Shown: positions 10,463-57,981 of the stretch, in pieces | How positions within the stretch are numbered: position 1 is the first letter of the stretch | Layout of the letters: the number at the start of each line of letters is the position of its first letter | Translations under genes and position numbers: made by a program | IMG/VR virus record: IMGVR_UViG_3300027763_000047 | Span: 6,308-70,307 of that record | DNA from: a virus | Lineage: Duplodnaviria; Heunggongvirae; Uroviricota; Caudoviricetes | Strand: one strand, 5' to 3' | Length of the DNA stretch: 64,000 bases | Notes under the pieces: generated by a model | What the model saw: only the letters and a program-made list of their open reading frames with translations | Databases searched by the model: none | What the model was told of the DNA's origin: nothing

Positions 10463-13400
10463 TTAATAAAGTTTTGTATAACCATAATTAACTACCACAG
10501 AGTTGCCGCTGGTGTTGTTAATGCTAAAGTCAAATCTATTAGTAGTACTACTTGGAGCAACATTGCTTCTAACTATGGCGTTGGCTGTGCCTATAAATTG
10601 ATTGGGTATGCTGACAAAATCCAACGGTGTACCGCCACCGTTGTAAACCCAAGCATATTGTGTACCCACCACTGGAACATTGGTATTAGTAATGGTAGCT
10701 AGGGCATTCCACGCAATGATGCCGTTGGGTATATTGCCAGTGACCCACATATTATATGTGCCGCTACTTACAGTAAAGCTGTAAGTGTTGGTGCCAGCGG
10801 TTACTGACCAAGAGCCGGTTGTTTGTTGGGCCACATTGGTCAAGCCTGATCCATTACCAACAAAGGTATTAGCAGTAACATTGCCGGCAGCACTGATATT
10901 TGCACCAGAGATGTTGCCAGAAGAGGGTTCAACGGTAGCATAGTTATTATACTTTATATTACCATCATAGAGCATTATACTCATATAACCATTGGAGGTA
11001 ATATCTTGTGTGACTGCTGGAGCTGGTAAACTAGTTAATTGACTACCATTACCTAAAATATAATTGCCAGTAATATTACCGTAGGCACTTAGTGATCCGC
11101 CTGACATACTTGATGGTATCGTAATATCGCCACCACTTACTGTTAATCCTTGTACTCCGGTAATGTTGGCACTGACAACTGTTAGTTCTGACCCAGATGT
11201 TATGTTGCCCGAAACGCTAATATTGCCTTGTTGTATATTAAGATTACTTAGTACATTGCCACTTAAACTTAAATTACCACCATTGATATTTTGTCCATTT
11301 ACATTGGCACCTATTATATTGCCTTCCGCGCTAATGCTACCACCCATGCCGGTATTGGAAGACATTGTAAGATTTCCACCTTCCATTGTAAGGCCATTAA
11401 CACTATAAATGTTAGCGCCATATGCAAAGATGTTGCCACTCAAACTAATATTGCCTGCGGATATATTAGCAGCATTTACATTGCCGCTTATGTTGGCATT
11501 ACTAATAATATTACCTGATAAACTTAGGTTAGCGGCATTAATATCGCCTGAGAAGTTAGCACCAAAAGCATTAAGATATCCGCCGAGGCCAGTAATTTGA
11601 TTAATATTAATATTACCAGCATTGGAAGTAATGCCTGTTACTGTGTCAATTAATAATCCAGAGGCTGTAATGTTACCTGAAGTTGATATTACGTTACTAC
11701 CAAAGTCGCCTAAGAAGTTAGCCACGTTAGCGTTGCCATAATCGCTACCACCAATTGATACCGGGGTACCATTAGCGTAGTTAACTGCAAAAGTATTAGC
11801 TGGTAGAGTCAAGTTGCCTGTGTTACCAAATAACCATTGGTTAATGTTTGGGCCAGCGTTAGTAAAAATACCAACAGAGAAGTCGCTAGTAATACCAAAG
11901 ACGCCTTCGCCTCCGCTTATTGAAGAGTTGTCAGGAAACCTTAAACCACCATTTACACCAAATGTCCATTGTGCTGAGTTACCTACATTGTCATTAGTAT
12001 TAATAACAACGTTACCTGTGTTGGCTAGCTTGACGTACAAGTCATCACTGCCGAAGAACAATTCTGTAGAGTAAAGATTACCCGAAGTCAAGTGCAGATG
12101 ATTGGCATCATTAGTGGTTGGATAAATTAATAACTGTTGATCAGCATTTGTTCCACCTGTTGGCTTTAAAGCAATGGCACTGCCGCTAAGTCCGCCGTCC
12201 GGAATGTTGGTTTCATAGACAACACTATTCAATGGCAAGGTCAAGTTACCAGTAGTGTCAAAGTTCCAAGTCTTTGTGCCACTGACATTACCAGCCTGTA
12301 TGGCCACATTGCCATCCTGTAAAACAGCAACATTGGCTTGTTCATCTGTGCCCAAAATCACATTACCAACGCCACCACCAGCTGCTACATGTATATCCGC
12401 GTTCCCAGTCAAGTAAATATTTAAATACTCATTGCTGGCACCGTTTGGTTGTAGGTTTAAGTTTCCTGTGCCAATGATGTTGACATCATCAAATGTAACA
12501 TTACCTGTATTACCACCTCCGCCACTGAATGTAACAGGATCACCATTGGCATAGTTTACAGCGAATGTATTGGCTGGTAATGTTAAGTTACCAAGGCTAT
12601 CAAATATCCAAGTATTACCAGTTGAAGTGTACCCGTTCCAAGACTGTATGGAAACATTGCCGATTGGAGAAACTCCAACCATCACATTGGCACCAGCATC
12701 TTCACCTAATATAAGACTTCCATCATTGTTGGTAACATGAAGGTCTGGTCCAGAGGTTAGGAAGATGTCCAAATATGAAGCAGCATTGGTAGGATCTGGT
12801 TGTAAGTGTAAGTTACCTGTACCAATGACATTAATATCATTGAATGTTACATTGCCTGTGTTACCACCGCCACCGCCGTATGGACTACCGTTAGCATAGT
12901 TAATACTTGAGTAATTATTTGGTAATGTTATGTTACCGTCAACGCCGAATGTCCAATCAGTCGGAGCAGTATTATTATTACCGGCATTGGCAGCAGTATT
13001 ATATTTGGTTATTACAAATGTTGCCCCACCATTACCAGCAGTCATAGTCAATACATCACCTTCGGAATAACCTGTGCCCGGATCAGTTACACCAACGTTA
13101 ACAACCTGACCACTTAAACCATAACCGTAACCTACTATCATACCTGTACCTGTGCCTCCGGAAATAGCAGAAGAACTTCCGCCACCACCGTAACCACTGC
13201 CACCAGTTAGTAATGTACAGATATTATATTGACCTGTTACTCGTAGTGTCAAGTCGTTTACATTCGGTGCAATGATAGTAGCACTGTTGGGTAGTGTTAA
13301 GTTACCATTTACACCAAAGGCCCATGTATTGGCATTGGCTGTGATATTAACGCTAGTATTACTAGTTTCACTTATTTGGCTACCTTGAGGCAATGTCAAT

Positions 13401-16400
13401 GCACCACTAGCATTAAAATCCCATAGATTAGGACCAGGGCTACCATTTTGTCCTACTGCTATTCTAACAATACCTGATCCTGGAGTAGGGTTAGCATATA
13501 CTGCCGCTATGTTGCTGATGCCAACGTTCGCATAATCTTCTATCCATATGGATACTGCCGCACCATTGGCTCCAGTTGACAATATGGACAGTGGATGATC
13601 CGTAGATGCAATAGAAGCAATATTACCAGCAGGGTCATCAGGTGTGATAACTAAATTACCTGTTGGGAATGTTAAGTTACCAGTAGTGTCAAAGTTCCAC
13701 TGTGCTGAGTTTCCGGTGGCATCATCACTGCCGATCACAACATTGCCGGCGGCTTCTAATTTTACATACTTGATATCGGAGCCAAAGTATTGATCAAAAT
13801 AAGCATTGTTGCCTGTGTCAAGGTGTATGTGTGTGGCAACATCGCCACCACGCACTCGAATATATTGTAAATTGCCCACGCTTTCGGTGCCTGGAGCCAG
13901 GTACAGGCCACTGCTGCCAACTTGATCTCCAGTGCCCACAACAGCTTGATCGTCGAATGTAACGTTGCCTGTGTTGCCGCCGCCACCAGCCGTGTCATAT
14001 GTGATCTCACCAGTAGATGCATCATAATACATGGCATTTGCTGTGTTGGCTTGTCGCACTGGTTTCACTGTGAATGTGTTGACAGTGGTTTGCTCCAGGA
14101 CTGATCCTGTGGCGTTCAATATGATTGAGTTGTTGGCTTGATTGGAGTTGCCGGCTCCGTAGCCAATGGCCACTGCGTATTGGCCCTGTGTGTCTCGCCC
14201 GGCTCCATCACCAACGGCCACGGCCGAGATGCCTTGTGTGTTGTAACCAGCATTTTCGCCAATGGCCACTGCTGAGTTGCCTTGTGTGGTTTGACCAGCT
14301 TCAAAACCAATAGCCACGCCATAGATGCCTTGTGTGGTTTGACCAGCAAGTCTTCCAAATGCTATTGCCGAGGTTCCTTGTGTGGTTGCGCCAGCCCCAA
14401 AACCAATTGCTATTGCCGAGCCACCTTGTGTGGTTTGTCCAGCTCCTTGGCCCACAGCCACCGACGATTCACCTTGTGTGGTTTTACCAGCACTATCACC
14501 GATTGCTACTGATTGGTCACCTTGACTGGTATTACCAGCTTGATAACCAATGGCCACTGATATATTACCTTGATTGACATTACCAGCCGAGTTGCCAATG
14601 GCTACTGCAACCAGGCCTTGATTGGTTAGTCCAGCACCCGAACCAAATGCCACTGCGTCACCCACAGTGTCTTGAATTGTTGCACCGTTTGTGAGTGTGA
14701 TCACGCCTGTGCTGATATTGCCTGCTGTGATATTGCCCGTGGTGCTGATTGGGTTTGATCCTAATGCAGCCAAGTTAGCAACAACATTGGCGTTGCCATA
14801 ACTTGCGGAAATACCAGTCAGTTGACTACCGTTGCCCAGAATATAACTACCAGTGATGTTGCCAACAGCACTGATGTTGCCAGGCACAGTCAAGTTACCA
14901 TCTGTGCCAAAGGTCCATGCATTACCGGCAGTTCTATCCGTGATACTATAATTGTTGCTACCATTGCCAAGAATACCAAAGTCCCATTGCTGAGTTGCGG
15001 TGGCCTGATCCTGCACTGACATATAAGCACTACGCGGAGTATTGTAGTTGTCATCGTAGCCAACCACAGTAATGCCAGGGCCAGCCACAATGCCAAAGTC
15101 TGTGCTTTCTACTCTTGGAGTATTGACCGTTATGTATGGAGTATAATCAACTCGGGGCTGGTAAGCCGTGTTACCGTTAATATCCAATAGACCATCGCCA
15201 TCGAACTGCATGGTGGTGTAGGTATCACCAGGCGTACCGCCTTGATTGGAAAAATCTCCCAACCAATTTATCTGCACCGCTCCAGAGTTGCCGCTAGGAT
15301 AACCACCGTAAGGATCGCCATTGGCATAGTTGATTGATATTTCGCTGTTACCTGGCAGTGTTAAGTTACCATCAGTGTCAAAAGCCCAGTTATAGGTGTT
15401 TGTTCCAATTGATATGTTACCACCGGATTCTAACTTGACATATTTGCTATCATCACCAAAGTATTGATCAAAATAACCATTATCGCCAGTGTCAAGATGT
15501 ATGTGTGTGGCAACATCACCACCACGCACTCTCAAGTATTGTAAATTGCCCGAGCTGTTAGCGCCAGGAGCCAAATACAAGCCACTGCCGCCGATTTCAT
15601 CGCCTGTGCCTACTACAATGTTATTATCAAATGTAACATTACCCGTATTACCGCTACCAGATGGCAGACCAGTTAATTGACTTCCATTGCCTAGGATGTA
15701 ACTTCCGGTAATATTACCAGTTGTTGAAATTACTACGTTACTGTTTGCCAAATATGTAGAAACATCAGCATTTGAGTAACTGGCTGGAAGATTAGTTAAT
15801 TGACTTCCATTACCAACGAAATAATTAGCAGTAATATTGCCGGTAGCAGATACCGTACCTACTGTAAGAACTTCTGTTCCGGAATTATACTTGAATAAAT
15901 TAGAAGTAGTAATATAACCGGTAGAATTAGCAAACGCTACAGCATTAGCATAATAATTAGGAGAGTACAGATTATTTAAAGTAACATCGCCGGCGTTGAT
16001 TGATCCTGTCGTACTAATTGTGTTGGAACCAAAGTTTGCTAAGAAACCAGCAGTATTTGCATTTCCATAATTAGAAGCAATACCAGTTAGCTGACTGCCA
16101 TTGCCAAAGAAATAACTAGCGGTGATATTGCCAGTAGTTGATATATTTGATGTTAATGCTTGTAAGTAAGATGAAACATTGCCATTAGCATATACTTGGC
16201 CTTGTAATGTAGTTATATTACTTGAATTGTTTGAAACATTAGATTGAATACTAATTATAGTATTGTCAGTTGGCAAGTATACGGCTACATTACTGTTACC
16301 ATAACTAGTAGTAACTACAATATTTGATATCAGACCGCCATCACCAATAAAATAGCCACTTGTTGTAATATTACCTACAATAGATAAATTGGCGGTTGAT

Positions 16401-17437
16401 GCTAATTGATATGCCATTCCGGCTACAACAGCTGAGTTGGCATTGTCCGCTTGAACAGCATAAGTTGCTGCGTTAGCTGTTTGTGCTATAGTGGCTGTGT
16501 TAGCAAATGATGCTAAGTTGGCATTGATTGCGAATAAAGCAGTATCAGCATTGATCGCCTGAGTAGCCAATGCTGCTAGATTAGCTACATATGCTGTGTT
16601 AGCAACAAGAGCAAACGGCACATTACCTACAATAGCATTGGCTGTAATGTTAGTGATATTGCTGCCATTGCCATACAGATAATTAGCAGTAACTCTATTA
16701 CCAACAATAGCATTGGCATATACATTCCCGGTTGTTGATACATTACCAGTGATAGATAAGGCAGATATTTGTCCAAAACTAGTTAAGTTTGAATAATTTA
16801 TGCTATTGCTGAATGTATTTCCAAGTAAAGCATTGGCCTGTACATTGGCAATAACATTGGTTAAATTGGCACCATCACCGATGAAAGTAGGTGCTGTAAT
16901 AGCAATTGTGCTATTCCAGCTGTTAGCTGAGTAATTATATGTAAAGTTAGCTCCTGCTATAGGAATTAACAGTCCGCCGCCATTAGCCTGTGCTGCATTG
17001 GCAGCACCGGTTGCTAGTGTAACATTTGAATTAGCAACAGATAAATTAGAATAGTTAACAGTAATAACATTGCCTGTTACCTGCAGGTTACCAGCTACAT
17101 AGACATTACCGGAGAACGTACCGGTGGCAGCGTTTATATATTGAGCGTAAACTGTACTGAAACGATTGGTACCCAACCCAATTGACCGGACATTGGGCAC
17201 ATCTGGTACAAAGTTGGCTGCTGGCACAACAACACCAATGCCATTTGTGGCTAATTGTAAATTGCCATTGTTATTGGTAACCTGTATGGTATTGTTGGCA
17301 ATTGTGATATTGCTGCCCACCGGGCCCGCTGCAAAAAGCTGTGTAAAATTGTAATTGGTGTCGGTAAAAGCTGTACGAAGTGGCGCACCTGTGCCATCGT
17401 TAGCGATATTGCCGGTATTGATAATTATTTGTCCCAT
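10463..17437 (-). CDS. giant tail fiber protein (2324 aa)
   Basis: N-term MGQIIINTGNIANDGTGAPLRTAFTDTNYNFTQLF fiber motif; about 13 S-A-V-A-I-G-x-x-A-G-x-T-T-Q-G repeats; multiple W-x-F-x-x-x-G-N-L-T-L-P and GNGSQLTG modules. Confidence 0.85.
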   Translation of the reverse strand: MGQIIINTGNIANDGTGAPLRTAFTDTNYNFTQLFAAGPVGSNITIANNTIQVTNNNGNLQLATNGIGVVVPAANFVPDVPNVRSIGLGTNRFSTVYAQYINAATGTFSGNVYVAGNLQVTGNVITVNYSNLSVANSNVTLATGAANAAQANGGGLLIPIAGANFTYNYSANSWNSTIAITAPTFIGDGANLTNVIANVQANALLGNTFSNSINYSNLTSFGQISALSITGNVSTTGNVYANAIVGNRVTANYLYGNGSNITNITANAIVGNVPFALVANTAYVANLAALATQAINADTALFAINANLASFANTATIAQTANAATYAVQADNANSAVVAGMAYQLASTANLSIVGNITTSGYFIGDGGLISNIVVTTSYGNSNVAVYLPTDNTIISIQSNVSNNSSNITTLQGQVYANGNVSSYLQALTSNISTTGNITASYFFGNGSQLTGIASNYGNANTAGFLANFGSNTISTTGSINAGDVTLNNLYSPNYYANAVAFANSTGYITTSNLFKYNSGTEVLTVGTVSATGNITANYFVGNGSQLTNLPASYSNADVSTYLANSNVVISTTGNITGSYILGNGSQLTGLPSGSGNTGNVTFDNNIVVGTGDEIGGSGLYLAPGANSSGNLQYLRVRGGDVATHIHLDTGDNGYFDQYFGDDSKYVKLESGGNISIGTNTYNWAFDTDGNLTLPGNSEISINYANGDPYGGYPSGNSGAVQINWLGDFSNQGGTPGDTYTTMQFDGDGLLDINGNTAYQPRVDYTPYITVNTPRVESTDFGIVAGPGITVVGYDDNYNTPRSAYMSVQDQATATQQWDFGILGNGSNNYSITDRTAGNAWTFGTDGNLTVPGNISAVGNITGSYILGNGSQLTGISASYGNANVVANLAALGSNPISTTGNITAGNISTGVITLTNGATIQDTVGDAVAFGSGAGLTNQGLVAVAIGNSAGNVNQGNISVAIGYQAGNTSQGDQSVAIGDSAGKTTQGESSVAVGQGAGQTTQGGSAIAIGFGAGATTQGTSAIAFGRLAGQTTQGIYGVAIGFEAGQTTQGNSAVAIGENAGYNTQGISAVAVGDGAGRDTQGQYAVAIGYGAGNSNQANNSIILNATGSVLEQTTVNTFTVKPVRQANTANAMYYDASTGEITYDTAGGGGNTGNVTFDDQAVVGTGDQVGSSGLYLAPGTESVGNLQYIRVRGGDVATHIHLDTGNNAYFDQYFGSDIKYVKLEAAGNVVIGSDDATGNSAQWNFDTTGNLTFPTGNLVITPDDPAGNIASIASTDHPLSILSTGANGAAVSIWIEDYANVGISNIAAVYANPTPGSGIVRIAVGQNGSPGPNLWDFNASGALTLPQGSQISETSNTSVNITANANTWAFGVNGNLTLPNSATIIAPNVNDLTLRVTGQYNICTLLTGGSGYGGGGSSSAISGGTGTGMIVGYGYGLSGQVVNVGVTDPGTGYSEGDVLTMTAGNGGATFVITKYNTAANAGNNNTAPTDWTFGVDGNITLPNNYSSINYANGSPYGGGGGNTGNVTFNDINVIGTGNLHLQPDPTNAASYLDIFLTSGPDLHVTNNDGSLILGEDAGANVMVGVSPIGNVSIQSWNGYTSTGNTWIFDSLGNLTLPANTFAVNYANGDPVTFSGGGGNTGNVTFDDVNIIGTGNLNLQPNGASNEYLNIYLTGNADIHVAAGGGVGNVILGTDEQANVAVLQDGNVAIQAGNVSGTKTWNFDTTGNLTLPLNSVVYETNIPDGGLSGSAIALKPTGGTNADQQLLIYPTTNDANHLHLTSGNLYSTELFFGSDDLYVKLANTGNVVINTNDNVGNSAQWTFGVNGGLRFPDNSSISGGEGVFGITSDFSVGIFTNAGPNINQWLFGNTGNLTLPANTFAVNYANGTPVSIGGSDYGNANVANFLGDFGSNVISTSGNITASGLLIDTVTGITSNAGNININQITGLGGYLNAFGANFSGDINAANLSLSGNIISNANISGNVNAANISAGNISLSGNIFAYGANIYSVNGLTMEGGNLTMSSNTGMGGSISAEGNIIGANVNGQNINGGNLSLSGNVLSNLNIQQGNISVSGNITSGSELTVVSANITGVQGLTVSGGDITIPSSMSGGSLSAYGNITGNYILGNGSQLTSLPAPAVTQDITSNGYMSIMLYDGNIKYNNYATVEPSSGNISGANISAAGNVTANTFVGNGSGLTNVAQQTTGSWSVTAGTNTYSFTVSSGTYNMWVTGNIPNGIIAWNALATITNTNVPVVGTQYAWVYNGGGTPLDFVSIPNQFIGTANAIVRSNVAPSSTTNRFDFSINNTSGNSVVVNYGYTKLY

Positions 17438-17912: not shown

Positions 17913-18425
17913 TTACAGGAAGAACTTTTCATTCTCATAGAATATTCTACCGGAGATACTGAATCTTATCTTCCCAGGTTCAATACCACGTACTGCGTGA
18001 GGCTCGCTAACCTGTAGTATATGCCATCTATGTGGCTCGATATTCATTGATTGAACTTTTTCATGCGTCTTACCATCGTAAAATTCCGTAAGAACATTGT
18101 CGCCGCCTGTTTCAAAAATATAAGATATTTTTACAAGGGTAAGGTCTGTATGTGGAGCTAGGTCTCCATCTATAAATTGAAATCCCCAGGTTGTATCTGG
18201 TATTACGTTTTCATCACACCATTTGGCTATGGGACTTCCCATAATATTGGTACGTTTATAATTATCCCATTGATATAGATCTTCACCATGATATGTAGTA
18301 TAATCTCGACTGAGATTTGCTATTAGTTCTTCTGGAATTTTTGGGAGATTTATATATCTAATTGGTGAATTTTTCATGGTGCGCCTACTGTTTGAATATT
18401 TACTATAATTATTCACACTTGACAA
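17913..18425 (-). CDS. 2OG-Fe(II) oxygenase/cupin-like protein
   Basis: APHTDL (HxD) and distal EPHAV histidine. Confidence 0.45.
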   Translation of the reverse strand: MSSVNNYSKYSNSRRTMKNSPIRYINLPKIPEELIANLSRDYTTYHGEDLYQWDNYKRTNIMGSPIAKWCDENVIPDTTWGFQFIDGDLAPHTDLTLVKISYIFETGGDNVLTEFYDGKTHEKVQSMNIEPHRWHILQVSEPHAVRGIEPGKIRFSISGRIFYENEKFFL

Positions 18426-18815: not shown

Positions 18816-18844
18816 GTTGACAATTAATTCAGTTAATTGTAAAC
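18816..18844 (+). promoter_or_regulatory. sigma70-type promoter of the TTGACAATTAA family
   Basis: ttgacaattaattcagttaattgtaaact. Confidence 0.6.
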
Positions 18845-18862
18845 TAGTGGTATTATAAATTA

Positions 18863-19999
18863 ATGGAGAATGTAGTGGACGAGCTTAAAATACGTGAGGA
18901 CGAGGGCAAGCATTATGTGTACTTTAACGGACCTTTTGGATCATGTGCCTACCAGTCAGATGCATTTGATACCTTAGCCGAAGCAGAGGCCTTTCGTCAA
19001 GAGCAACTGGATTCAGCAGATTACTCCGAAAATAATACGGAAAAGATGTATTGCTATTTGTGGCACGAAAAGACCGACATTGACGAATGTAAGTTTGGTG
19101 AACGTTGGGTCAAAGAAGGCCAAGATCCTAAGAAAGAAGTACTCAAGCGTATTAAAGACTCTGTTGGTGTTCGCAAGGACAAGATCAACGACGGCACCAT
19201 TGAACTGGTAGCTATCTGGGACGTTACCGAATTAGCAAAAGAGGTTGGTCGTTTCAAGATACACGGCCGGGTTGACGACTATATCCGTGAACACGTAGGG
19301 TTTCGTAAAGGTACAACAGGCGAAGTTCACACCCTGTCAGCAGTAGATATGGCTTTTAAAGTCAACGAGTTCCTTAAGAAACAGAATCAGCCGTTGATTG
19401 AAGCAGGATTGAGCCAGAATCAGTATAGTGCCGCAGAGAATGTTCTTGCTGCTATTGCAGACGGCAAACGTACTATTGTTGCTGAATTGTGCGCTCGCTT
19501 TGGTAAGACTATTTGGTCAGGTGTGTTGGCAAAAGAAACTAATCGTCCGTTGACTATTGTTGCGTCCTATGTGCTGACAAGTTTTGCATCTTTTAAGAAA
19601 GACCTGAGCGCCTTTGAACAGTTCCGTGACTTTGAATTAATCGATGCCGGTGAAAACGAATGGGAACTTAAGATTGAACAGGCCATTGGCGAAGGTAAAC
19701 AGGCTGTGGTGTTCTTGTCAATGTGTGCTGGTGGCCGCCGACAAGATAAGATCGATTTTCTATTTGGGCAACCTGTGAACAAGTTAGTGATCATTGACGA
19801 AGCTGACTTTGGTGTTCACCAAATTAAACAGAGCACACCACTGATTGAAGCACGTGGTGACGATGACATTGTGGTGCTTATGACTGGTACAAACGGTGAC
19901 AAAGCCGCAAGCATTTGGCCTGTAGATCACTACCTCAGCGTAACCTACCCAGAATTGCTTATGGAGAAACACGCAGATCGCCTGGTTGACACAGTGTGA
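18863..19999 (+). CDS. SF2 helicase N-terminal (ATP-binding) core with a unique N-terminal domain
   Basis: motif I ELCARFGKT, Ia PLTIVAS, II IIDEADF. Confidence 0.65.
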   Translation: MENVVDELKIREDEGKHYVYFNGPFGSCAYQSDAFDTLAEAEAFRQEQLDSADYSENNTEKMYCYLWHEKTDIDECKFGERWVKEGQDPKKEVLKRIKDSVGVRKDKINDGTIELVAIWDVTELAKEVGRFKIHGRVDDYIREHVGFRKGTTGEVHTLSAVDMAFKVNEFLKKQNQPLIEAGLSQNQYSAAENVLAAIADGKRTIVAELCARFGKTIWSGVLAKETNRPLTIVASYVLTSFASFKKDLSAFEQFRDFELIDAGENEWELKIEQAIGEGKQAVVFLSMCAGGRRQDKIDFLFGQPVNKLVIIDEADFGVHQIKQSTPLIEARGDDDIVVLMTGTNGDKAASIWPVDHYLSVTYPELLMEKHADRLVDTV

Positions 20000-20014
20000 T
20001 TTTGGTGCTATAAT
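19986..20014 (+). promoter_or_regulatory. perfect consensus sigma70 promoter
   Basis: ttgacacagtgtgattttggtgctataat. Confidence 0.7.
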
Positions 20015-20045
20015 ATACACATACACTAAGCAAATAGGAACAATT

Positions 20046-21302
20046 ATGTTGAAACACTTTAAGGTAGATGTTAGTAGGCACCTACTTGTAGTAGATGTAG
20101 AGTTCTATCAAATGAACTTAGCATCTGTGGTTGAGATTGCTCGCACAGCAGAACCTGATGCATTCGTAGAGGATGGAGTGTTCCTGCCAGCGTGGAGTAA
20201 GTTTGCCGCTAATCCTGTAAAGGCCAAGGGATTCTTTACCAATATGCTTCAGGCATTATTTGAAGGCAAAGGCGGCGATGACAGTCTCAACGTAGACTAT
20301 CAAACTGGTCGCAAGGCCAAAGAAGGCATGAAGGTTGCTATGATGTTCCTGCCTGGTAGCACAACTAATGCTAACCTACAAGAGATCAAACCCATCGCTG
20401 AACAAGCCCTGCGTGGTTTCCGTGTTGTATTGGTTAGTGGTGCTGAAGATATCAGCAATGCCACAGCAGAGAAGTCTGTTAAGGAAGAGATTGAGAAAGC
20501 AGAGAAAACAGGACAGCACGTTCTGATTCTATCAGCAGGTATGGCACAGCGTAGCTTCAGTATCCCAGAAATCACTGAACTGTACCTTGCCTACGACACG
20601 GGTGACAATGGTGCTACTATACAAAAGATGAGCCGCACACTTACACCACACAAAGCAGGCAAGATAGGCCGTGTAGTTAGCCTGAGTTTTGATCCTAACC
20701 GTGATGACAAGTTCGATGCCATGATGATCGAAACAGCTCAAAACTACAAAAAGAATCACGGCATCAAAGACCTTAAGCAGGCCCTGCGTGATGTGTTACG
20801 CACAGTAGATATCTTTAAGTGCCAACAAGACGGCGCAGTTAAGATTGAGATTGATGAGTATCTAGAGCAGGCATTGTCACGCAAGAGTATTGATCGAGTG
20901 ATTGGTAAGATTGCTCCTGTGAATGATCTGTCTGCTGACGAAGTTCGTGCCCTTGCTGGCGGCAATGTTGATGTGTTTCGTGCCGCACGTAAGGAAGCGG
21001 CTGCACGTGGCAAGACACGCCTAAATGTTGCCAAGAAAAAGTCTGGTGCTAACAAGACTGATGCCAGCGAGAAAGAGTTGAAGTTGGCACGTGAGATGAT
21101 TGTTACAATTAGTCAGAACATTGACATCATTAGGTTCTACGGCGGTAGCACTATTGAAGAAGCCTTTGCCCTAATGGATGCTGATGGTCAGTCTATACAA
21201 GATGACGTCTCGGAACAGTTTGGAGTCCCTTATACCATGGTTAAAGAGTTAGTGCTCACTAACTTTATTAACCGTGATCTGCTTGATCTCAAGTTTGCTT
21301 GA
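20046..21302 (+). CDS. SF2 helicase C-terminal domain-like protein
   Basis: Start moved to ATG 20046 downstream of the promoter; HVLILSAG...ITELYLAYDTG...QKMSRTLTP resembles helicase motifs IV-VI. Confidence 0.55.
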   Translation: MLKHFKVDVSRHLLVVDVEFYQMNLASVVEIARTAEPDAFVEDGVFLPAWSKFAANPVKAKGFFTNMLQALFEGKGGDDSLNVDYQTGRKAKEGMKVAMMFLPGSTTNANLQEIKPIAEQALRGFRVVLVSGAEDISNATAEKSVKEEIEKAEKTGQHVLILSAGMAQRSFSIPEITELYLAYDTGDNGATIQKMSRTLTPHKAGKIGRVVSLSFDPNRDDKFDAMMIETAQNYKKNHGIKDLKQALRDVLRTVDIFKCQQDGAVKIEIDEYLEQALSRKSIDRVIGKIAPVNDLSADEVRALAGGNVDVFRAARKEAAARGKTRLNVAKKKSGANKTDASEKELKLAREMIVTISQNIDIIRFYGGSTIEEAFALMDADGQSIQDDVSEQFGVPYTMVKELVLTNFINRDLLDLKFA

Positions 21303-21331
21303 GTGTAGTTAAAATACAACAGCCTTAGTGG

Positions 21332-21360
21332 TTGACATGGTACCATTTTGGCAGTATAAT
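21332..21360 (+). promoter_or_regulatory. perfect consensus sigma70 promoter
   Basis: ttgacatggtaccattttggcagtataat; leader nearly identical to the 19986 cassette. Confidence 0.7.
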
Positions 21361-21391
21361 TAACACATACACACAAACAGTTGGAACGATT

Positions 21392-22429
21392 ATGTTAAGC
21401 AGAATGAAGTTTGAGATTGAACCACTGGTTGTAGAAATACTTGATCAGTTGCCCGACTCTGTTTGGTCTAGCAAGACCTCAACATTCTTTGATCCTGCAA
21501 TTGGTGGCGGTCAGTTTGTTCGTGCCATTGAACAACGGCTCCGTAATACCGGTCACAGTGATGCTAATATTCGCAGTCGAGTTTTTGGCTTCGAAGAAAG
21601 CGATTTACATATTCGCTTCGCAGTAAATAAGTACAAGCTCGTAGGCCAGTATATTCGTAAGCCCTACGACAAGTTCTTTGAATTGGACAATAGTATGAAA
21701 TTCGATGTAGTCATAGGCAACCCACCCTTTCAAAAATCAGGAGGTACCGCCAAACGTTGGACTCTGTGGGAACAGTTCCTGCAGAAATGTTTGACCCTAG
21801 ATGCAGGGATTGTAACCCTAGTGGTGCCACAAAGCCTGACTAGCCCAGGAGCAGCATTCGATAGTATTAAATCAAGATGCAGGGTATTAAATCTTGCAGT
21901 TAAGCGACATTTTAAGGTAGGATCAACCTTTTGTTATTTCATTGTTGACCTAACACAAGAAGTAACCGAAACATTGTTGATCACCGAAGATGGACAACGT
22001 ATGCTAGATATCAGAAATCTACCATTTGTTCCGGGCGAGGTGACAGACCAATCATTGGCGTTACTTGATAAACTATTATCTAGACAAAAACGGTCATGGT
22101 GGCGCGGTGAACTACACACAAGCAGACAGGATCTTTTCAGCGACACCGGTGAATATTCGGTAATTCACACTAATGCACAAACATTGAAAACAGATACTAT
22201 TCATTCAAATTTGAATAAGATTCGTGTGGTGGTGACTCTTAGTGGTTACCCCAAGTTTCAGGTGATCACCAATGCGTATGCATCACAGGCCACATTCTGG
22301 TGTGAGTTTGAGAGTATTGGGGCCGCGGAGGAATTTGCAGCAGAATGTAATGGAGATGAAATACAAAATATGCTAAATTTATTCAAATGGTCAGGTTGGA
22401 ATAGTCGTGAGGTAATTAGTTTATTGTAA
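21392..22429 (+). CDS. DNA N6-adenine methyltransferase (gamma-like order of motif I then IV)
   Basis: FFDPAIGGGQF (motif I) and VIGNPPFQ (motif IV). Confidence 0.8.
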   Translation: MLSRMKFEIEPLVVEILDQLPDSVWSSKTSTFFDPAIGGGQFVRAIEQRLRNTGHSDANIRSRVFGFEESDLHIRFAVNKYKLVGQYIRKPYDKFFELDNSMKFDVVIGNPPFQKSGGTAKRWTLWEQFLQKCLTLDAGIVTLVVPQSLTSPGAAFDSIKSRCRVLNLAVKRHFKVGSTFCYFIVDLTQEVTETLLITEDGQRMLDIRNLPFVPGEVTDQSLALLDKLLSRQKRSWWRGELHTSRQDLFSDTGEYSVIHTNAQTLKTDTIHSNLNKIRVVVTLSGYPKFQVITNAYASQATFWCEFESIGAAEEFAAECNGDEIQNMLNLFKWSGWNSREVISLL

Positions 22430-22442
22430 ACAAAAATATTGG

Positions 22443-22471
22443 TTGACAATTAAATCACGATAGTCTATAAT
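22443..22471 (+). promoter_or_regulatory. perfect consensus sigma70 promoter
   Basis: ttgacaattaaatcacgatagtctataat. Confidence 0.7.
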
Positions 22472-22555: not shown

Positions 22556-23020
22556 TTGTTACAGGATCTATCTAATATAATCGATCACATCCGAAATCGT
22601 ACTTACATGGGCGGAGTAGAGCGTGATAAGTTAAGAGTAAAGTCCACAGGTGAAGTATTCACTCCCACTGAACTGGTGCGTGAGATGCTGGAGCAGATTC
22701 CTATCGAACAATTTACGGATCCTACTAAAACTTTTCTAGATCCCAGTTGCGGAGATGGCCAGTTCTTAGGAGAAGTCCTAATCCGTAAGATGGAAAATGG
22801 TAGTACCTTTGAACAAGCGTTATCTACTACATACGGTGTTGATCTAATGCAAGACAACGTAGACTTATGCCGTAAGCGATTGTTATGCGGCAGAGAAGAT
22901 CTGCGACACATTGTTGAACGCAACATAGTCTGTCACGATGCACTGACCTATGACTATAGCTTTAACGGAACCAACATGAACCAGAATGATCTAACCTGGA
23001 ATCAACTATTTGAAATATGA
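22556..23020 (+). CDS. truncated methyltransferase-like protein (AdoMet-binding N-half only)
   Basis: TTG start with GAGGAGG RBS; motif X EVFTPTELV and motif I FLDPSCGDGQF; no NPPY/F motif. Confidence 0.5.
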   Translation: MLQDLSNIIDHIRNRTYMGGVERDKLRVKSTGEVFTPTELVREMLEQIPIEQFTDPTKTFLDPSCGDGQFLGEVLIRKMENGSTFEQALSTTYGVDLMQDNVDLCRKRLLCGREDLRHIVERNIVCHDALTYDYSFNGTNMNQNDLTWNQLFEI

Positions 23021-55701: not shown

Positions 55702-57981
55702 ATGCAAAACAACAAAGAAATTGAAGCAATTGTAGGGCAGGCGGTTTCGATTGCTCGGATTAAACATCACGAGTATGTGCTAACCGAACATATATTATTG
55801 GCCTTAATACGCCACATTCCTTTCCGCAAAGTACTGGAAGGATTCGGTACAAGTATTGCACTCATGGACGAGGAATTAGATGTCTATTTGGACAGTTTAA
55901 CCAGTATAGTTACATCTAAGTCAGAATTTCAACCACGTAAAACTAACGCCCTTGAACGTTGTTTTAATCGGGCTATGACACAGGTGTTATTTACTGGCCG
56001 CCGTTCAGTAACCACATTTGATTTGTATCTTGCTATGATGAGTGAGACAAACAGTCACGCACATTACTTCCTGATGAAGTATGGAGTTAAGAAAGCCGAG
56101 TTTATGGAATACTGGCAGCAAAATTATAAAGCTGAAGATGCCGAGGTTAGTGCTTCTGAAGCTGATGCCATCTTAACTGAATTTTGTACAAACCTAACCA
56201 AAATGGCTACTGAAGATAAGTTAGAGCCAATGATTGGCCGCTCAGCTGAACTAGACGAAATCATTACTGTACTGGCTCGAAAGTTTAAAGCTAACGTACT
56301 AATGGTGGGCGATCCGGGTGTAGGCAAAACTGCCATCGCAGAAGGGCTTGCCCAGGAAATTGTAAACAACCGTGTACCCGCATTCCTTAACGGACATGAA
56401 GTATGGAGTTTGGAAATCGGCTCATTGTTAGCCGGCAGTAAGTATCGTGGCGAATTTGAGGAAAAGTTTAAACAGGTCATTGGTGCATTAGAAGCCAAGA
56501 AAAATTGTATCTTATTTGTTGATGAAGCACATACAATGAAAGGCGCTGGCGCAAGTTCACAATCATCACTAGACTTTGCTAATATGCTAAAGCCAGCTAT
56601 TACCAAGGGTTATCTTAAGGTAATTGCGTCAACTACCTGGGAAGAATTCTATGAGTCATTTGAAAAGGATCGTGCGCTAATGCGTCGATTCCATCGTGTG
56701 TCCATTGACGAACCCACGCCAGAAGTAACGGAGCAAATCTTAATCGGCTTATCACCTCGCTTGGAAAAATTCCACGATGTGTTGATTGATACTGATGCTA
56801 TTAAAGCAGCAGTAGACTTGTCGGGTCGTTACATACATGATCGCAAGAATCCAGATAAGTCAATTGACTTGCTAGACGGTGCATGTGCCAAGGAACGTGT
56901 TAAAGATATAGGCACTACTACTGTGACTAAAGACATGATCATGGCACAGTTGAGTCGTATTACTGAGGTTCCCATGGATCGTTTACAAAACGAACGTTCG
57001 GCTAATATTGTGGAACTGGAAGGTAATATTAAACAGAAGTTGTATGGCCAAGACGAAGCTGTTAATTCGGTACTTGAGCGGGTATACATTAACTTCTCGG
57101 GTATTGGTAACGAAAACAAACCAATTGCCAGCTTCTTATTCTTGGGACCAACTGGCACAGGTAAGACAGAATTGGCCAAGTTATTGGCTGAGCATTTAGA
57201 TATGCAGTTGTTGAAATATGACATGAGTGAGTTCCAGGAGAAGCATACTGTTAGCTCATTGATTGGTGCTCCCCCAGGATACGTTGGGTTTGAAGATGGT
57301 AATGTGGGTGGTGGAAAACTTATTAGTGATGTCAGTAAGAACCCTTATTCAATCTTGTTGTTTGATGAAATTGAAAAGGCACATCCGGATGTAGTTAACC
57401 TTATGTTGCAAATGTTGGATGAAGCTCGCATCACCAGTGCCAATGGTAAAACTGTTAACCTGAAGAACTGCATCATTATTATGACCAGTAACTTAGGTGC
57501 TCGCGACAATGAGAATAACAACATTGGCTTTGGGCAGACACTGGAAAAGACAGGATCAGAACACAAGGCAATGAAGGATTTCTTTAAACCTGAATTACGT
57601 AATCGTATTGATCAAATCTGTCGCTTTAAGAAACTAGATACACTGGCTGTTAAGAAAATTGTTGTTAAATTTGTTGATCAACTACAAACCAGTTTAAGCA
57701 CAAAGAATATTCGTCTTAACTTATCCGAGCCAGTAATCGACATGCTGGTTGAAAAAGGCTATGATAACAAGATGGGTGCTCGACCATTAAATCGTAAGAT
57801 TGATGAACTTATTCGCGTACCATTGAGTAAGAAAATTCTCTTTGAACGATTAAGTGACTGTGTAATTACAGCGGACATGGTTAATGATCAAATTGACTTT
57901 ATCATCATACCTAATCCCGCATTAGCTATTGTCGACAACTCAGGAATTATTTTACTTGATGGCGAATCTTCCACCGTTTAA
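55702..57981 (+). CDS. ClpA-like AAA+ unfoldase (two AAA domains)
   Basis: Clp-N LTEHILLALI; D1 GDPGVGKTAIAEGLA; D2 GPTGTGKTELAKLLAE, LLFDEIEKAHPDV; 759 aa. Confidence 0.85.
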   Translation: MQNNKEIEAIVGQAVSIARIKHHEYVLTEHILLALIRHIPFRKVLEGFGTSIALMDEELDVYLDSLTSIVTSKSEFQPRKTNALERCFNRAMTQVLFTGRRSVTTFDLYLAMMSETNSHAHYFLMKYGVKKAEFMEYWQQNYKAEDAEVSASEADAILTEFCTNLTKMATEDKLEPMIGRSAELDEIITVLARKFKANVLMVGDPGVGKTAIAEGLAQEIVNNRVPAFLNGHEVWSLEIGSLLAGSKYRGEFEEKFKQVIGALEAKKNCILFVDEAHTMKGAGASSQSSLDFANMLKPAITKGYLKVIASTTWEEFYESFEKDRALMRRFHRVSIDEPTPEVTEQILIGLSPRLEKFHDVLIDTDAIKAAVDLSGRYIHDRKNPDKSIDLLDGACAKERVKDIGTTTVTKDMIMAQLSRITEVPMDRLQNERSANIVELEGNIKQKLYGQDEAVNSVLERVYINFSGIGNENKPIASFLFLGPTGTGKTELAKLLAEHLDMQLLKYDMSEFQEKHTVSSLIGAPPGYVGFEDGNVGGGKLISDVSKNPYSILLFDEIEKAHPDVVNLMLQMLDEARITSANGKTVNLKNCIIIMTSNLGARDNENNNIGFGQTLEKTGSEHKAMKDFFKPELRNRIDQICRFKKLDTLAVKKIVVKFVDQLQTSLSTKNIRLNLSEPVIDMLVEKGYDNKMGARPLNRKIDELIRVPLSKKILFERLSDCVITADMVNDQIDFIIIPNPALAIVDNSGIILLDGESSTV

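Follow-up and report, generated by a model that had tools for sequence, protein, structure and literature searches.

An SF2 helicase-like enzyme made as two polypeptides within a methyltransferase-containing cassette of a jumbo phage

A lone RecA-like lobe of an SF2 enzyme does not contain a complete ATP site. The pairing of a methylase with a helicase is known from the phage anti-restriction protein DarB of P1. Restriction enzymes of Type ISP have the domain order nuclease, motor, methylase (PMC4666363), and jumbo phages often hold several methylases against host restriction (PMC7824862). In Aeromonas phage Aeh1, nrdA is split by mobE and the products of the two adjacent genes reassemble (PMC3045599), and in T4-type phages the PeSL cassettes, which consist of a promoter and a stem-loop, are mobile and tied to modular exchange (PMC2839356). 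Nothing specific on a split SF2 helicase or on a T5orf172-helicase-methylase system was found in the literature.

The locus described here lies in a 64,000-nt stretch of DNA (hereafter the window) from a jumbo phage that is only distantly related to cultured ones (Table 1). A small ORF, a motor, a methyltransferase (MTase) with a hypervariable C-terminus and a truncated MTase paralogue form a conserved cassette, which resembles a disassembled Type ISP-like restriction-modification enzyme, and we infer the corresponding function. As in Type ISP enzymes, a nuclease-like head is followed by the motor and the methylase (PMC4666363). However, the head is predicted to be GIY-YIG/T5orf172-like and not an N-terminal Mrr PD-(D/E)xK domain, and the enzyme's parts are divided among three to four genes, whereas Type ISP enzymes are single polypeptides, a state found here only in relatives. 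The cassette is also encoded by a phage rather than by a bacterial plasmid or chromosome, and has the truncated MTase paralogue and the small ORF in addition. Compared with Type I HsdR/ResIII motors, the ResIII scores stay below the gathering threshold, a PD-(D/E)xK nuclease and HsdS are lacking (no HsdS-like gene was found in the cassette, the window or the relatives), and the MTase bears its own variable end. With DarB, the locus shares an adenine methylase and an SF2 helicase on a mobile element, but here the helicase precedes the methylase, the reverse of the DarB order, the proteins are far smaller, and a nuclease-like head is present; there is also no sign of virion packaging for the window proteins.

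Table 1. Features of the split motor gene and its surroundings, in window coordinates.
Feature	Position	Strand	Remarks
Sigma70-like promoter 5' of the N-half gene	18817..18845	+	TTGACA-17-TAAACT, 10/12 matches; from promoter scan
N-half ORF	18863-19999	+	378 aa; stop TGA 19997-19999
First 61 codons of the N-half ORF	18863..19045	+	Homologous to a separate ~55-aa ORF just 5' of the N-half in relatives; in-frame fusion here
GIY-YIG/T5orf172-like N-terminal domain (predicted)	19046..19420	+	aa 62-186; Y65, K77, G79, R96, D138, D139, R142, E154, H156 conserved
RecA-like lobe 1 of SF2 ATPase	19421..19999	+	Q-like motif, Walker A, motif Ia, DEAD, motif III; 3' end is the inter-lobe linker
Promoter-leader cassette at the split	19983..20050	+	Copy 1 of 68-nt direct repeat; ATG 20046
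C-half	20046..21302	+	418 aa; accessory segment, RecA-like lobe 2, conserved SFDPNRDDKF segment, helical C-terminal domain ~aa 250-418
Copy 2 of the 68-nt repeat	21329..21396	+	TTGACA 21332-21337, TATAAT 21355-21360, leader, MTase gene start; family D2, 74% identity
Gamma-class N6-adenine DNA methyltransferase	21392..22429	+	Motif I FFDPAIGGGQF, motif IV GNPPF; hypervariable TRD-like C-terminal half
Perfect sigma70 promoter (predicted)	22443..22471	+	5' of truncated MTase paralogue
Truncated MTase paralogue	22556..23020	+	Motifs X, I, II, III; Pfam N6_Mtase 2e-6, profile positions 22-118 of 311; PHROG 4376

An earlier note on this DNA had read helicase motifs I, Ia and II in the N-half, and all of them could be located: motif I is CARFGKT (aa 210-216, Walker A GKT with K215), motif Ia is IVASYVLTSF (aa 232-241), and motif II is VIIDEADFG (aa 309-317), in which IIDEAD (aa 310-315) includes the Walker B DEAD at aa 312-315. 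In addition, motif III is present as LMTGTNGD (aa 339-346; MTGT aa 340-343), so that lobe 1 has the Walker A and Walker B motifs (GKT and DExx) as well as motif III of an SF2 enzyme. The resemblance of the C-half to a C-terminal RecA-like helicase domain was likewise borne out, lobe 2 having both motif V (VLILSAGMAQRSFSIPEI, aa 159-176) and the arginine-finger motif VI (GATIQKMSRTLTP, aa 189-201, with Q193/R197). The C-half starts at ATG 20046, the methionine of MLKHF in all homologues; the ORF program instead begins at TTG 19986. Throughout the family the Walker A/B motifs and motifs V/VI are invariant, as are K, E, D and G in 42 diverse relatives. For a fused orthologue whose C part is 84% identical, AlphaFold predicts a two-lobed SF2 fold, and the best structural and profile matches of the motor are restriction enzymes; PADLOC REase_MTase_IIG matches motor and MTase colinearly. 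The Pfam search gave no match for either window half, hence no ResIII/DEAD or Helicase_C above the gathering score; ResIII matched 14 of the 42 relatives, always below the gathering threshold, and Helicase_C a single member (E 0.008). The NCBIfam search gave no meaningful match, and PDB sequence searches with both halves, the family profile, the MTase and the fusion protein P0339 found no significant similarity to solved structures.

The unique N-terminal domain of 180 aa described in the earlier note is not a single domain, since residues 1-61 are a fused small ORF and the head comprises residues 62-186. In nine relatives, a stop codon follows ...DSADFGE and the N-half has its own ATG, whereas the window reads through at this point; the same fusion occurs in a 374-aa protein with 95% identity (P0001). 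The suggested likeness of the N-terminus to T5orf172/GIY-YIG modules appears to extend to the predicted fold, the strand-helix order and the conserved Y...K-F-G...R...E-x-H pattern but not to Pfam, where neither PF10544 (T5orf172) nor PF01541 (GIY-YIG) matched the window head at E <= 0.1; a positive control for the GIY-YIG search, the insert ORF of locus L069, matched at 2.6e-9. The head-domain model likewise appears to match GIY-YIG nucleases rather than the Mrr-family PD-(D/E)xK fold. Among relatives of 34-57% identity, Y65 is kept in 100%, the position of E154 is acidic in 98% and the histidine is kept in 93%, while R96 is kept in 69% of relatives, with Tyr in the remainder, the putative catalytic assignment following motif order rather than superposition.

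Fused orthologues of 735-742 aa, colinear with both halves, are present in at least 24 contigs, where the MTase and the small gene again come next; overall, fused single-gene forms measure ~735-790 aa and motor-MTase chains 1122-1255 aa. A single uninterrupted ORF in some relatives means that the halves belong to one enzyme, and does not refute the split. Independent metagenomic contigs numbering in the hundreds have the same two split genes, and their junctions are varied and well formed. Among the best 150 cluster representatives at 50% identity, ~65 are fused, ~70 are C-half only and ~13 N-half only, and 53 of 62 loci are split and nine fused. The states at the junction include fusion, overlapping or abutting stop and start codons, a conserved sigma70 promoter, a small inserted ORF and an inserted homing endonuclease, the last being a GIY-YIG/NUMOD3 gene lying exactly at the helicase junction of L069. 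Wherever the flank suffices, the halves are adjacent and in the same order and orientation. Both are full length and under clear constraint, and the N- and C-terminal modules show discordant identities among relatives. In the fused model, residues 311-323 are predicted coil (block-mean pLDDT 65 for 311-320 and 82 for 321-330). Close relatives can differ in whether the gene is fused or split; a neighbour-joining tree of 116 tips gave a Fitch minimum of 37 changes, but it is star-like and poorly resolved and supports intermingled states only, not a count of events. The break in the coil linking the lobes behaves as a fission/fusion hot spot. Conservation of the split architecture rules out a sequencing artefact and confirms that the split is real, and the evidence supports that the two ORFs are one SF2 helicase-like enzyme made as two polypeptides.

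In the window, the two ORFs are in different frames and 46 nt apart, with no ORF in the spacer. The earlier note had placed a perfect sigma70 promoter here, and the predicted site matches the consensus at 12 of 12 positions (19986-20014): TTGACA at 19986-19991, overlapping the last N-half codons, a 17-nt spacer, and TATAAT at 20009-20014 with TG upstream of the -10. The -10 is followed by the CA-rich leader, ACACATACAC, and by AGGA at 20036-20039, 6 nt 5' of the ATG. Nine perfect TTGACA-N15-19-TATAAT sites occur in the window against 0.23 expected, a number reached in none of 100 shuffles. Such a site is not peculiar to the junction, however, as promoters precede almost all genes in the 18.4-24 kb region; the one in front of the N-half gene is a member of family D1/D3, the TTGACAATTAA promoter repeats. 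In 12 related junctions the two hexamers and their 17-nt distance are kept, while spacer and leader sequences vary. No terminator-like hairpin was found at 19950-20050 or 21300-21400, and therefore the most likely effect of the promoter is not to uncouple the halves but to raise transcription of the C-half and of the genes downstream of it; the independent regulation proposed in the earlier note is hypothetical, given the missing terminator and the promoters on every neighbouring gene.

The ACACATACAC leader occurs in two places only in the 64 kb, at the C-half junction and 5' of the MTase gene, and a lineage with a fused gene (L002) has the same -10 and leader 5' of its MTase. Compared with L007, whose junction is tightly coupled, the window junction has ~54 nt inserted. 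Sequence comparison thus indicates that the promoter-leader of the window's lineage was added to an already split gene, and it is probably a duplicate of the promoter-leader of the downstream MTase gene. Like Aeh1 nrdA, an enzyme gene lies here in two adjacent genes, with an endonuclease at the junction in L069. By contrast, the window insert is a promoter-leader instead of an endonuclease gene, the fission is recurrent and falls between structural lobes, and reassembly is presumed. The short, repeated, strong sigma70-like promoter cassettes at gene boundaries of a mosaic region appear similar to PeSL, but the window promoter has no stem-loop terminator and belongs to a jumbo phage distant from cultured ones.

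The MTase matches Pfam Eco57I (2.8e-8), N6_Mtase and PADLOC MTase_II, and is orthologous to the C-terminus of the 1176-aa P0339. As in Type ISP enzymes, a gamma N6-adenine MTase with NPPY/F is followed by a variable end, whose TRD role is putative: residues 1-75 are conserved at 75-89%, and for residues 161-345 most close relatives have no detectable counterpart. The truncated paralogue, which has no NPP/NPPY motif, is kept with the cassette in cyanophage S-CAM7 and nearly all relatives (66-87% identity). Motor-MTase fusions are P0339, P0309 and a 1255-aa ORF of LR756508. Synteny of the cassette is common to jumbo phages and a T4-like cyanophage, being held down to 29-37% identity in S-CAM7. 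The family comprises 593 clusters at 50% identity, named "hypothetical protein" except for sporadic mislabels, and includes one cultured phage; it is nearly phage-confined, as a scan of 185,579 species genomes yielded no more than two short MAG contigs. Megablast of the locus and of 24 kb of the window found no match in 50,697 phage records, where tblastn with the two halves hit S-CAM7, a single uncultured huge phage and nothing else. Scanning the window for tRNAs and Rfam families gave no hits.

Taken together, we consider it likely that a restriction-type SF2 ATPase underwent natural fission in its inter-lobe linker and serves as the motor of a Type ISP/Type I-like cassette. One gene would have been split in the flexible linker between the RecA-like lobes, the N-half giving the GIY-YIG/T5orf172-like head and lobe 1 (Walker A/B), and the C-half lobe 2 with the arginine finger and a helical tail. 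From SF2 architecture and the fused orthologues, the ATP site would form only on association of both polypeptides. The split would be older than the promoter, since close relatives share the break with overlapping or abutting stop and start codons; the ~54-nt promoter-leader would then have been inserted at the break in the window's sub-lineage. In the complex, a DNA-translocating ATPase would be coupled to a nuclease-like head and to an adenine methylase with sequence specificity, and the complex might restrict foreign or host DNA, or only protect phage DNA.

The last role leads to a possible but less favoured reading, in which the cassette is an anti-restriction or self-protection system whose translocase drives processive early adenine methylation of phage DNA, the head only binding DNA. 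Methylase-helicase pairing as in DarB would agree with this, as would the position amid individually promoted, early-type genes, the near confinement of the family to phages and the hypervariable TRD-like end, which would suit a methylase that follows the restriction specificities of its hosts; jumbo phages, moreover, often have more than one methylase with which to counter host restriction (PMC7824862). However, the Y, the acidic residue and the H conserved in the head are polar residues of the kind that typifies active sites of GIY-YIG type, the order head-motor-methylase is that of Type ISP (PMC4666363), and the motor's best matches are restriction enzymes. A helicase for replication, recombination or repair that has a T5orf172-type nuclease and lies next to the methylase only by coincidence is highly improbable, given motor-methylase gene fusions in three separate sequences and synteny from jumbo phages to a T4-like cyanophage.

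That the halves are functionally independent and separately controlled, e.g., one acting as a nuclease/ATP-binding protein and the other binding DNA, is very unlikely. The strong predicted promoter, the small ORF or homing-endonuclease gene tolerated between them in relatives, and the discordant module identities would fit such independence, but the constant adjacency, order and orientation, the invariant catalytic motifs of both lobes, the alternation of fused and split states between close relatives, the missing terminator and the incomplete ATP site of a lone RecA lobe all argue for one enzyme. Almost no weight can be given to a frameshift introduced in sequencing or assembly, to a pseudogene or to a break repaired by programmed frameshifting. 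The ORFs do lie in different frames, and the C-half frame is open for at least 28 codons upstream of its ATG. However, identical architecture recurs in many independent assemblies, and both halves are full length and clearly constrained. A read indel that restores one frame is unlikely because of the in-frame stops and the 46-nt spacer, which holds a consensus promoter and an SD; a fused product through a single frameshift is excluded because eight of the 12 related promoter-type junctions have additional in-frame stops, which also rule out programmed frameshifting or read-through.

We prefer, then, the fission of one restriction-type motor gene, which would provide an oft-repeated natural case of an SF2 motor with its RecA lobes as separate proteins, in which reassembly of the ATP site in trans is testable. 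The tolerated break point has been colonised by promoters, morons and homing endonucleases. For annotation, 320-aa and 418-aa "hypothetical proteins" should be read as halves of one enzyme. It is more doubtful that the cassette represents an undescribed multi-subunit counterpart to Type ISP, almost confined to phages, with a GIY-YIG-type head, an ATPase site in trans and repeated linker fission that is adaptive; if so, the fissions with their lodged promoters and mobile genes would be recombination joints, through which head, motor and specificity region are swapped independently in phage-host or phage-phage conflict. In this abundant, unannotated phage family, a motor of restriction type is joined with an adenine methylase whose putative recognition end changes fast, a plausible phage-borne restriction or anti-restriction system.

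The N-half and C-half genes are two parts of a single SF2 ATPase gene, and the reading of a split SF2 helicase put forward in the earlier note was right. Of the helicase motifs, Walker A (CARFGKT, aa 210-216), Ia, Walker B (VIIDEADFG, aa 309-317) and III (MTGT) lie in the N-half, and the motif V-like VLILSAGMAQRSFSIPEI and motif VI-like GATIQKMSRTLTP segments lie in the C-half; neither protein matched Pfam, NCBIfam or PDB sequences. Metagenomic homologues number 693 for the N-half (mostly 315–322 aa among the matches listed) and 816 for the C-half (nearly all 417–421 aa among the matches listed). The sole cultured phage with both halves is the T4-like cyanophage S-CAM7 (29–37% identity), whose gene is broken at the same point, with the same two methylase-type genes after it. 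With the S-CAM7 C-half as query, proteins of 735–742 aa colinear with N-half plus C-half were retrieved, one of them on at least 24 contigs, with the same methylase and small gene downstream. These are the fused orthologues that had been recommended as a check, and together with the metagenomic homologues and the shared break in S-CAM7 they argue for a two-polypeptide helicase rather than a frameshift. When 1.84 billion cluster representatives were searched with a profile, 593 members of the family were recovered; of the top 150, about 65 were fused, about 70 consisted of the C-half only and about 13 of the N-half only.

Features of the cassette, its surroundings and two junction inserts in relatives
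Feature	Position	Strand	Detail
2324-aa ORF	10463-17437	-	GN(I/V)T...GNGSQLTG-type repeats throughout
N-half gene	18863-19999	+	378 aa; stop TGA 19997-19999
N-half aa 1-61	18863-19045		homologous to separate ORF
Head domain (N-half aa 62-186)	19046-19420
Junction promoter	TTGACA 19986-19991, TATAAT 20009-20014	+	sigma70; 17-nt spacer; 12/12 consensus
Inserted junction segment	19983-20050		68 nt
C-half gene	20046 (ATG)-21302	+	418 aa
Methylase promoter, leader and start	21329-21396
Gamma-class N6-adenine methyltransferase gene	21392-22429	+	345 aa
Methylase aa 161-345	21872-22429
Truncated methyltransferase paralogue gene	22556-23020	+	154 aa
ClpA-like double-AAA ATPase	55702-57981		PHROG 4871, E 3e-232
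244-nt insert, 55-aa hydrophobic ORF	L023 2311-2478
784-nt insert, GIY-YIG/NUMOD3 homing-endonuclease gene	L069 198-860	- (opposite)	Pfam GIY-YIG 2.6e-9

The AlphaFold model of P0273, a fused orthologue whose C part is 84% and N part 68% identical to the window (mean pLDDT 78.5, pTM 0.66), predicts two alpha/beta lobes with a 13-residue coil between them (residues 311-323; block-mean pLDDT 65 at residues 311-320 and 82 at 321-330), and the gene break in the window coincides exactly with this coil. On this model, the break falls in the inter-lobe linker and the C-half contains a RecA-like lobe, as had been predicted for the second protein. Many Snf2, XPD and RecQ-type enzymes gave similar scores, a ranking too flat to decide on an SF2 family.

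The N-terminal region of the N-half had been described as a single 180-aa domain resembling T5orf172/GIY-YIG modules, but it is composite. Residues 1-61 correspond to a conserved ORF of about 55 aa (ending ...FWQEQxDSADFGE*) that relatives encode separately, immediately upstream of the N-half. In the window and one 95%-identical cluster, this ORF has lost its stop codon and continues in frame into the N-half. With the motor split next to it, the cassette thus shows fusion at one boundary and fission at the next. Residues 62-186, the head, are modeled (pLDDT 81.5) as beta-beta-alpha-alpha-beta-alpha. T5orf172, MUG113 and GIY-YIG account for most of their named matches to viral models, with weak E-values. 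The proposed likeness finds tentative support at the level of fold, whereas the domain gave no match to the Pfam T5orf172 and GIY-YIG families. Across 42 relatives of 34–57% identity, Y65, G79 and D138 are invariant (100%), K77 and E/D154 are kept in 98%, R142 in 95%, H156 in 93% and R96 in 69%, the remainder having Tyr. The head is only 31–37% identical in L007, L012, L025 and L034, loci of relatives in which the RecA1 and RecA2 lobes are 76–79% and 86–91% identical, and no homologue of it was detectable in S-CAM7. The head therefore looks exchangeable.

Among 62 loci whose junctions were compared, 9 are fused and 53 split. Besides the two inserts in the table, the split forms comprise stop/start overlaps (ATGTTGA, TAATG), an in-frame TAA immediately before the ATG (one base change away from a fused gene), gaps of 1–12 nt with an SD, and gaps of 17–61 nt with sigma70-like promoters of several sequence types. 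In a neighbour-joining tree that is poorly resolved, fused loci are interspersed with split ones, even among near neighbours. Sequence comparison thus shows that the split is widespread and takes many forms, and marks the junction as a hot spot of fission and fusion. In 8 of the 12 promoter-type junctions of close relatives, the halves are separated by further in-frame stops, which rules out a fused product made by a single frameshift.

The perfect sigma70 promoter sequence noticed between the halves is confirmed, and nine perfect TTGACA-N15-19-TATAAT sites occur in the window against 0.23 expected by chance. It has a TG upstream of the -10, its -35 hexamer encodes the last N-half residues, the N-half stop falls within its spacer, and AGGA lies 6 nt ahead of the C-half ATG; no terminator-like hairpin was found between the halves and no stem-loop accompanies the promoter. 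Nor is it peculiar to this junction, as near-consensus promoters precede almost every gene from 18.4 to 24 kb. Gene by gene, such promoters were seen at nine sites at 7239-38860 and at 18419, 18817, 22443 and 23886, in at least two sequence classes, TTGGTTGACAATTAA(A/T)T and GATTTTGG...TATAAT..ACACATACAC, the latter only at 19983 and 21329. In 12 close relatives with this junction type the -35, the -10 and the 17-nt spacing are kept while other positions vary, showing conservation within a sub-lineage. A TTGACA-17-TACAAT match in S-CAM7 (L001 4549-4577) runs from the N-half stop codon into the first C-half codons and is probably due to chance, because transcripts would start inside the gene.

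In L007, whose C-half is 87% identical, ...EKHKERLC* overlaps ATGTTGAAA, and the window has about 54 extra nt exactly at this stop/start overlap; the promoter was therefore added to an already split gene. Over 68 nt, the inserted segment shares 74% identity with the methylase promoter, leader and start, and the CA-rich leader ACACATACAC occurs only in these two segments in 64 kb. As the fused-gene lineage L002 has the same -10 and leader ahead of its methylase, the methylase copy is probably the older and the junction copy its duplicate.

The two halves and the two methylase genes are consecutive and co-oriented. The 345-aa product has motif I and GNPPF (Pfam Eco57I, 2.8e-8), while the 154-aa paralogue retains motifs X and I-III and lacks NPPY. 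S-CAM7 and jumbo-phage contigs as long as 347 kb share the gene order small ORF, motor, methylase, mini-methylase, and motor and methylase are fused in three sequences: P0339 (1176 aa; C-terminus 35% identical to the window methylase, E 2e-36), P0309 (1122 aa) and an ORF of 1255 aa in LR756508, a 484-kb uncultured phage. One PADLOC model, REase_MTase_IIG, matches the lobe-1 region (E 2e-7) and the P0339 methylase colinearly; Pfam ResIII is the only recurring family among family members (14 of 42, with sub-threshold scores). These comparisons show that the motor is evolutionarily coupled to the methylase. In close relatives, identity to the window is 76–94% for the RecA1 and RecA2 lobes, 31–94% for the head and 75–89% for methylase aa 1-75, while aa 161-345 usually show no detectable similarity, even in most relatives with a motor 85–94% identical. 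Such contrasts are expected from recognition-domain swapping and suggest that the C-terminal methylase half is a target-recognition region, often replaced. The truncated paralogue is more conserved than the full methylase (66–87% vs. 39–61%). In LR756508 (L072 177-1010, 1985-2560) an ORF starting right at the NPPY motif has a similar mini-methylase close by, which hints at a split methylase.

Among 185,579 bacterial and archaeal species, with one genome each, the family was found in two short MAG contigs only, and is therefore essentially phage-borne. The window itself, a novel jumbo-type phage, had no nucleotide-level match in the phage collection, and tRNA genes and Rfam families (gathering threshold) were absent from positions 1-64000. 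The best clue to its affiliation is the ClpA-like ATPase, which shares about 40% identity with its counterparts in PA5oct-like and other jumbo phages. The 2324-aa ORF, presumably a tail fibre, lies upstream of the cassette and ends about 1.4 kb away from it.

We propose that the two halves come together to build the ATP site, one chain supplying the Walker motifs and the other motif VI, and that the junction promoter would boost expression of the C-half and downstream genes rather than uncouple the halves. The complex might then act as a Type ISP/Type I-like restriction-modification enzyme, given a module order of nuclease-type head, motor, connector, methylase and recognition region comparable with that of those enzymes (PMC4666363). 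We give this restriction-like role about an even chance; that the complex merely speeds protective methylation of the phage's own DNA seems less probable. Functional "genes in pieces" (PMC3045599) and promoter cassettes acting as shuffling joints (PMC2839356) have precedents in T4-type phages, although the junction promoter, unlike those cassettes, lacks a stem-loop. The motor-methylase architecture resembles that of Type ISP enzymes, but the head differs and the cassette is phage-encoded. The cassette, whose biochemical role is putative, is not a categorically new system; it combines known kinds in a new form, namely the fission of an SF2 motor gene and, in phages, a Type ISP-like motor-methylase that has another kind of head.
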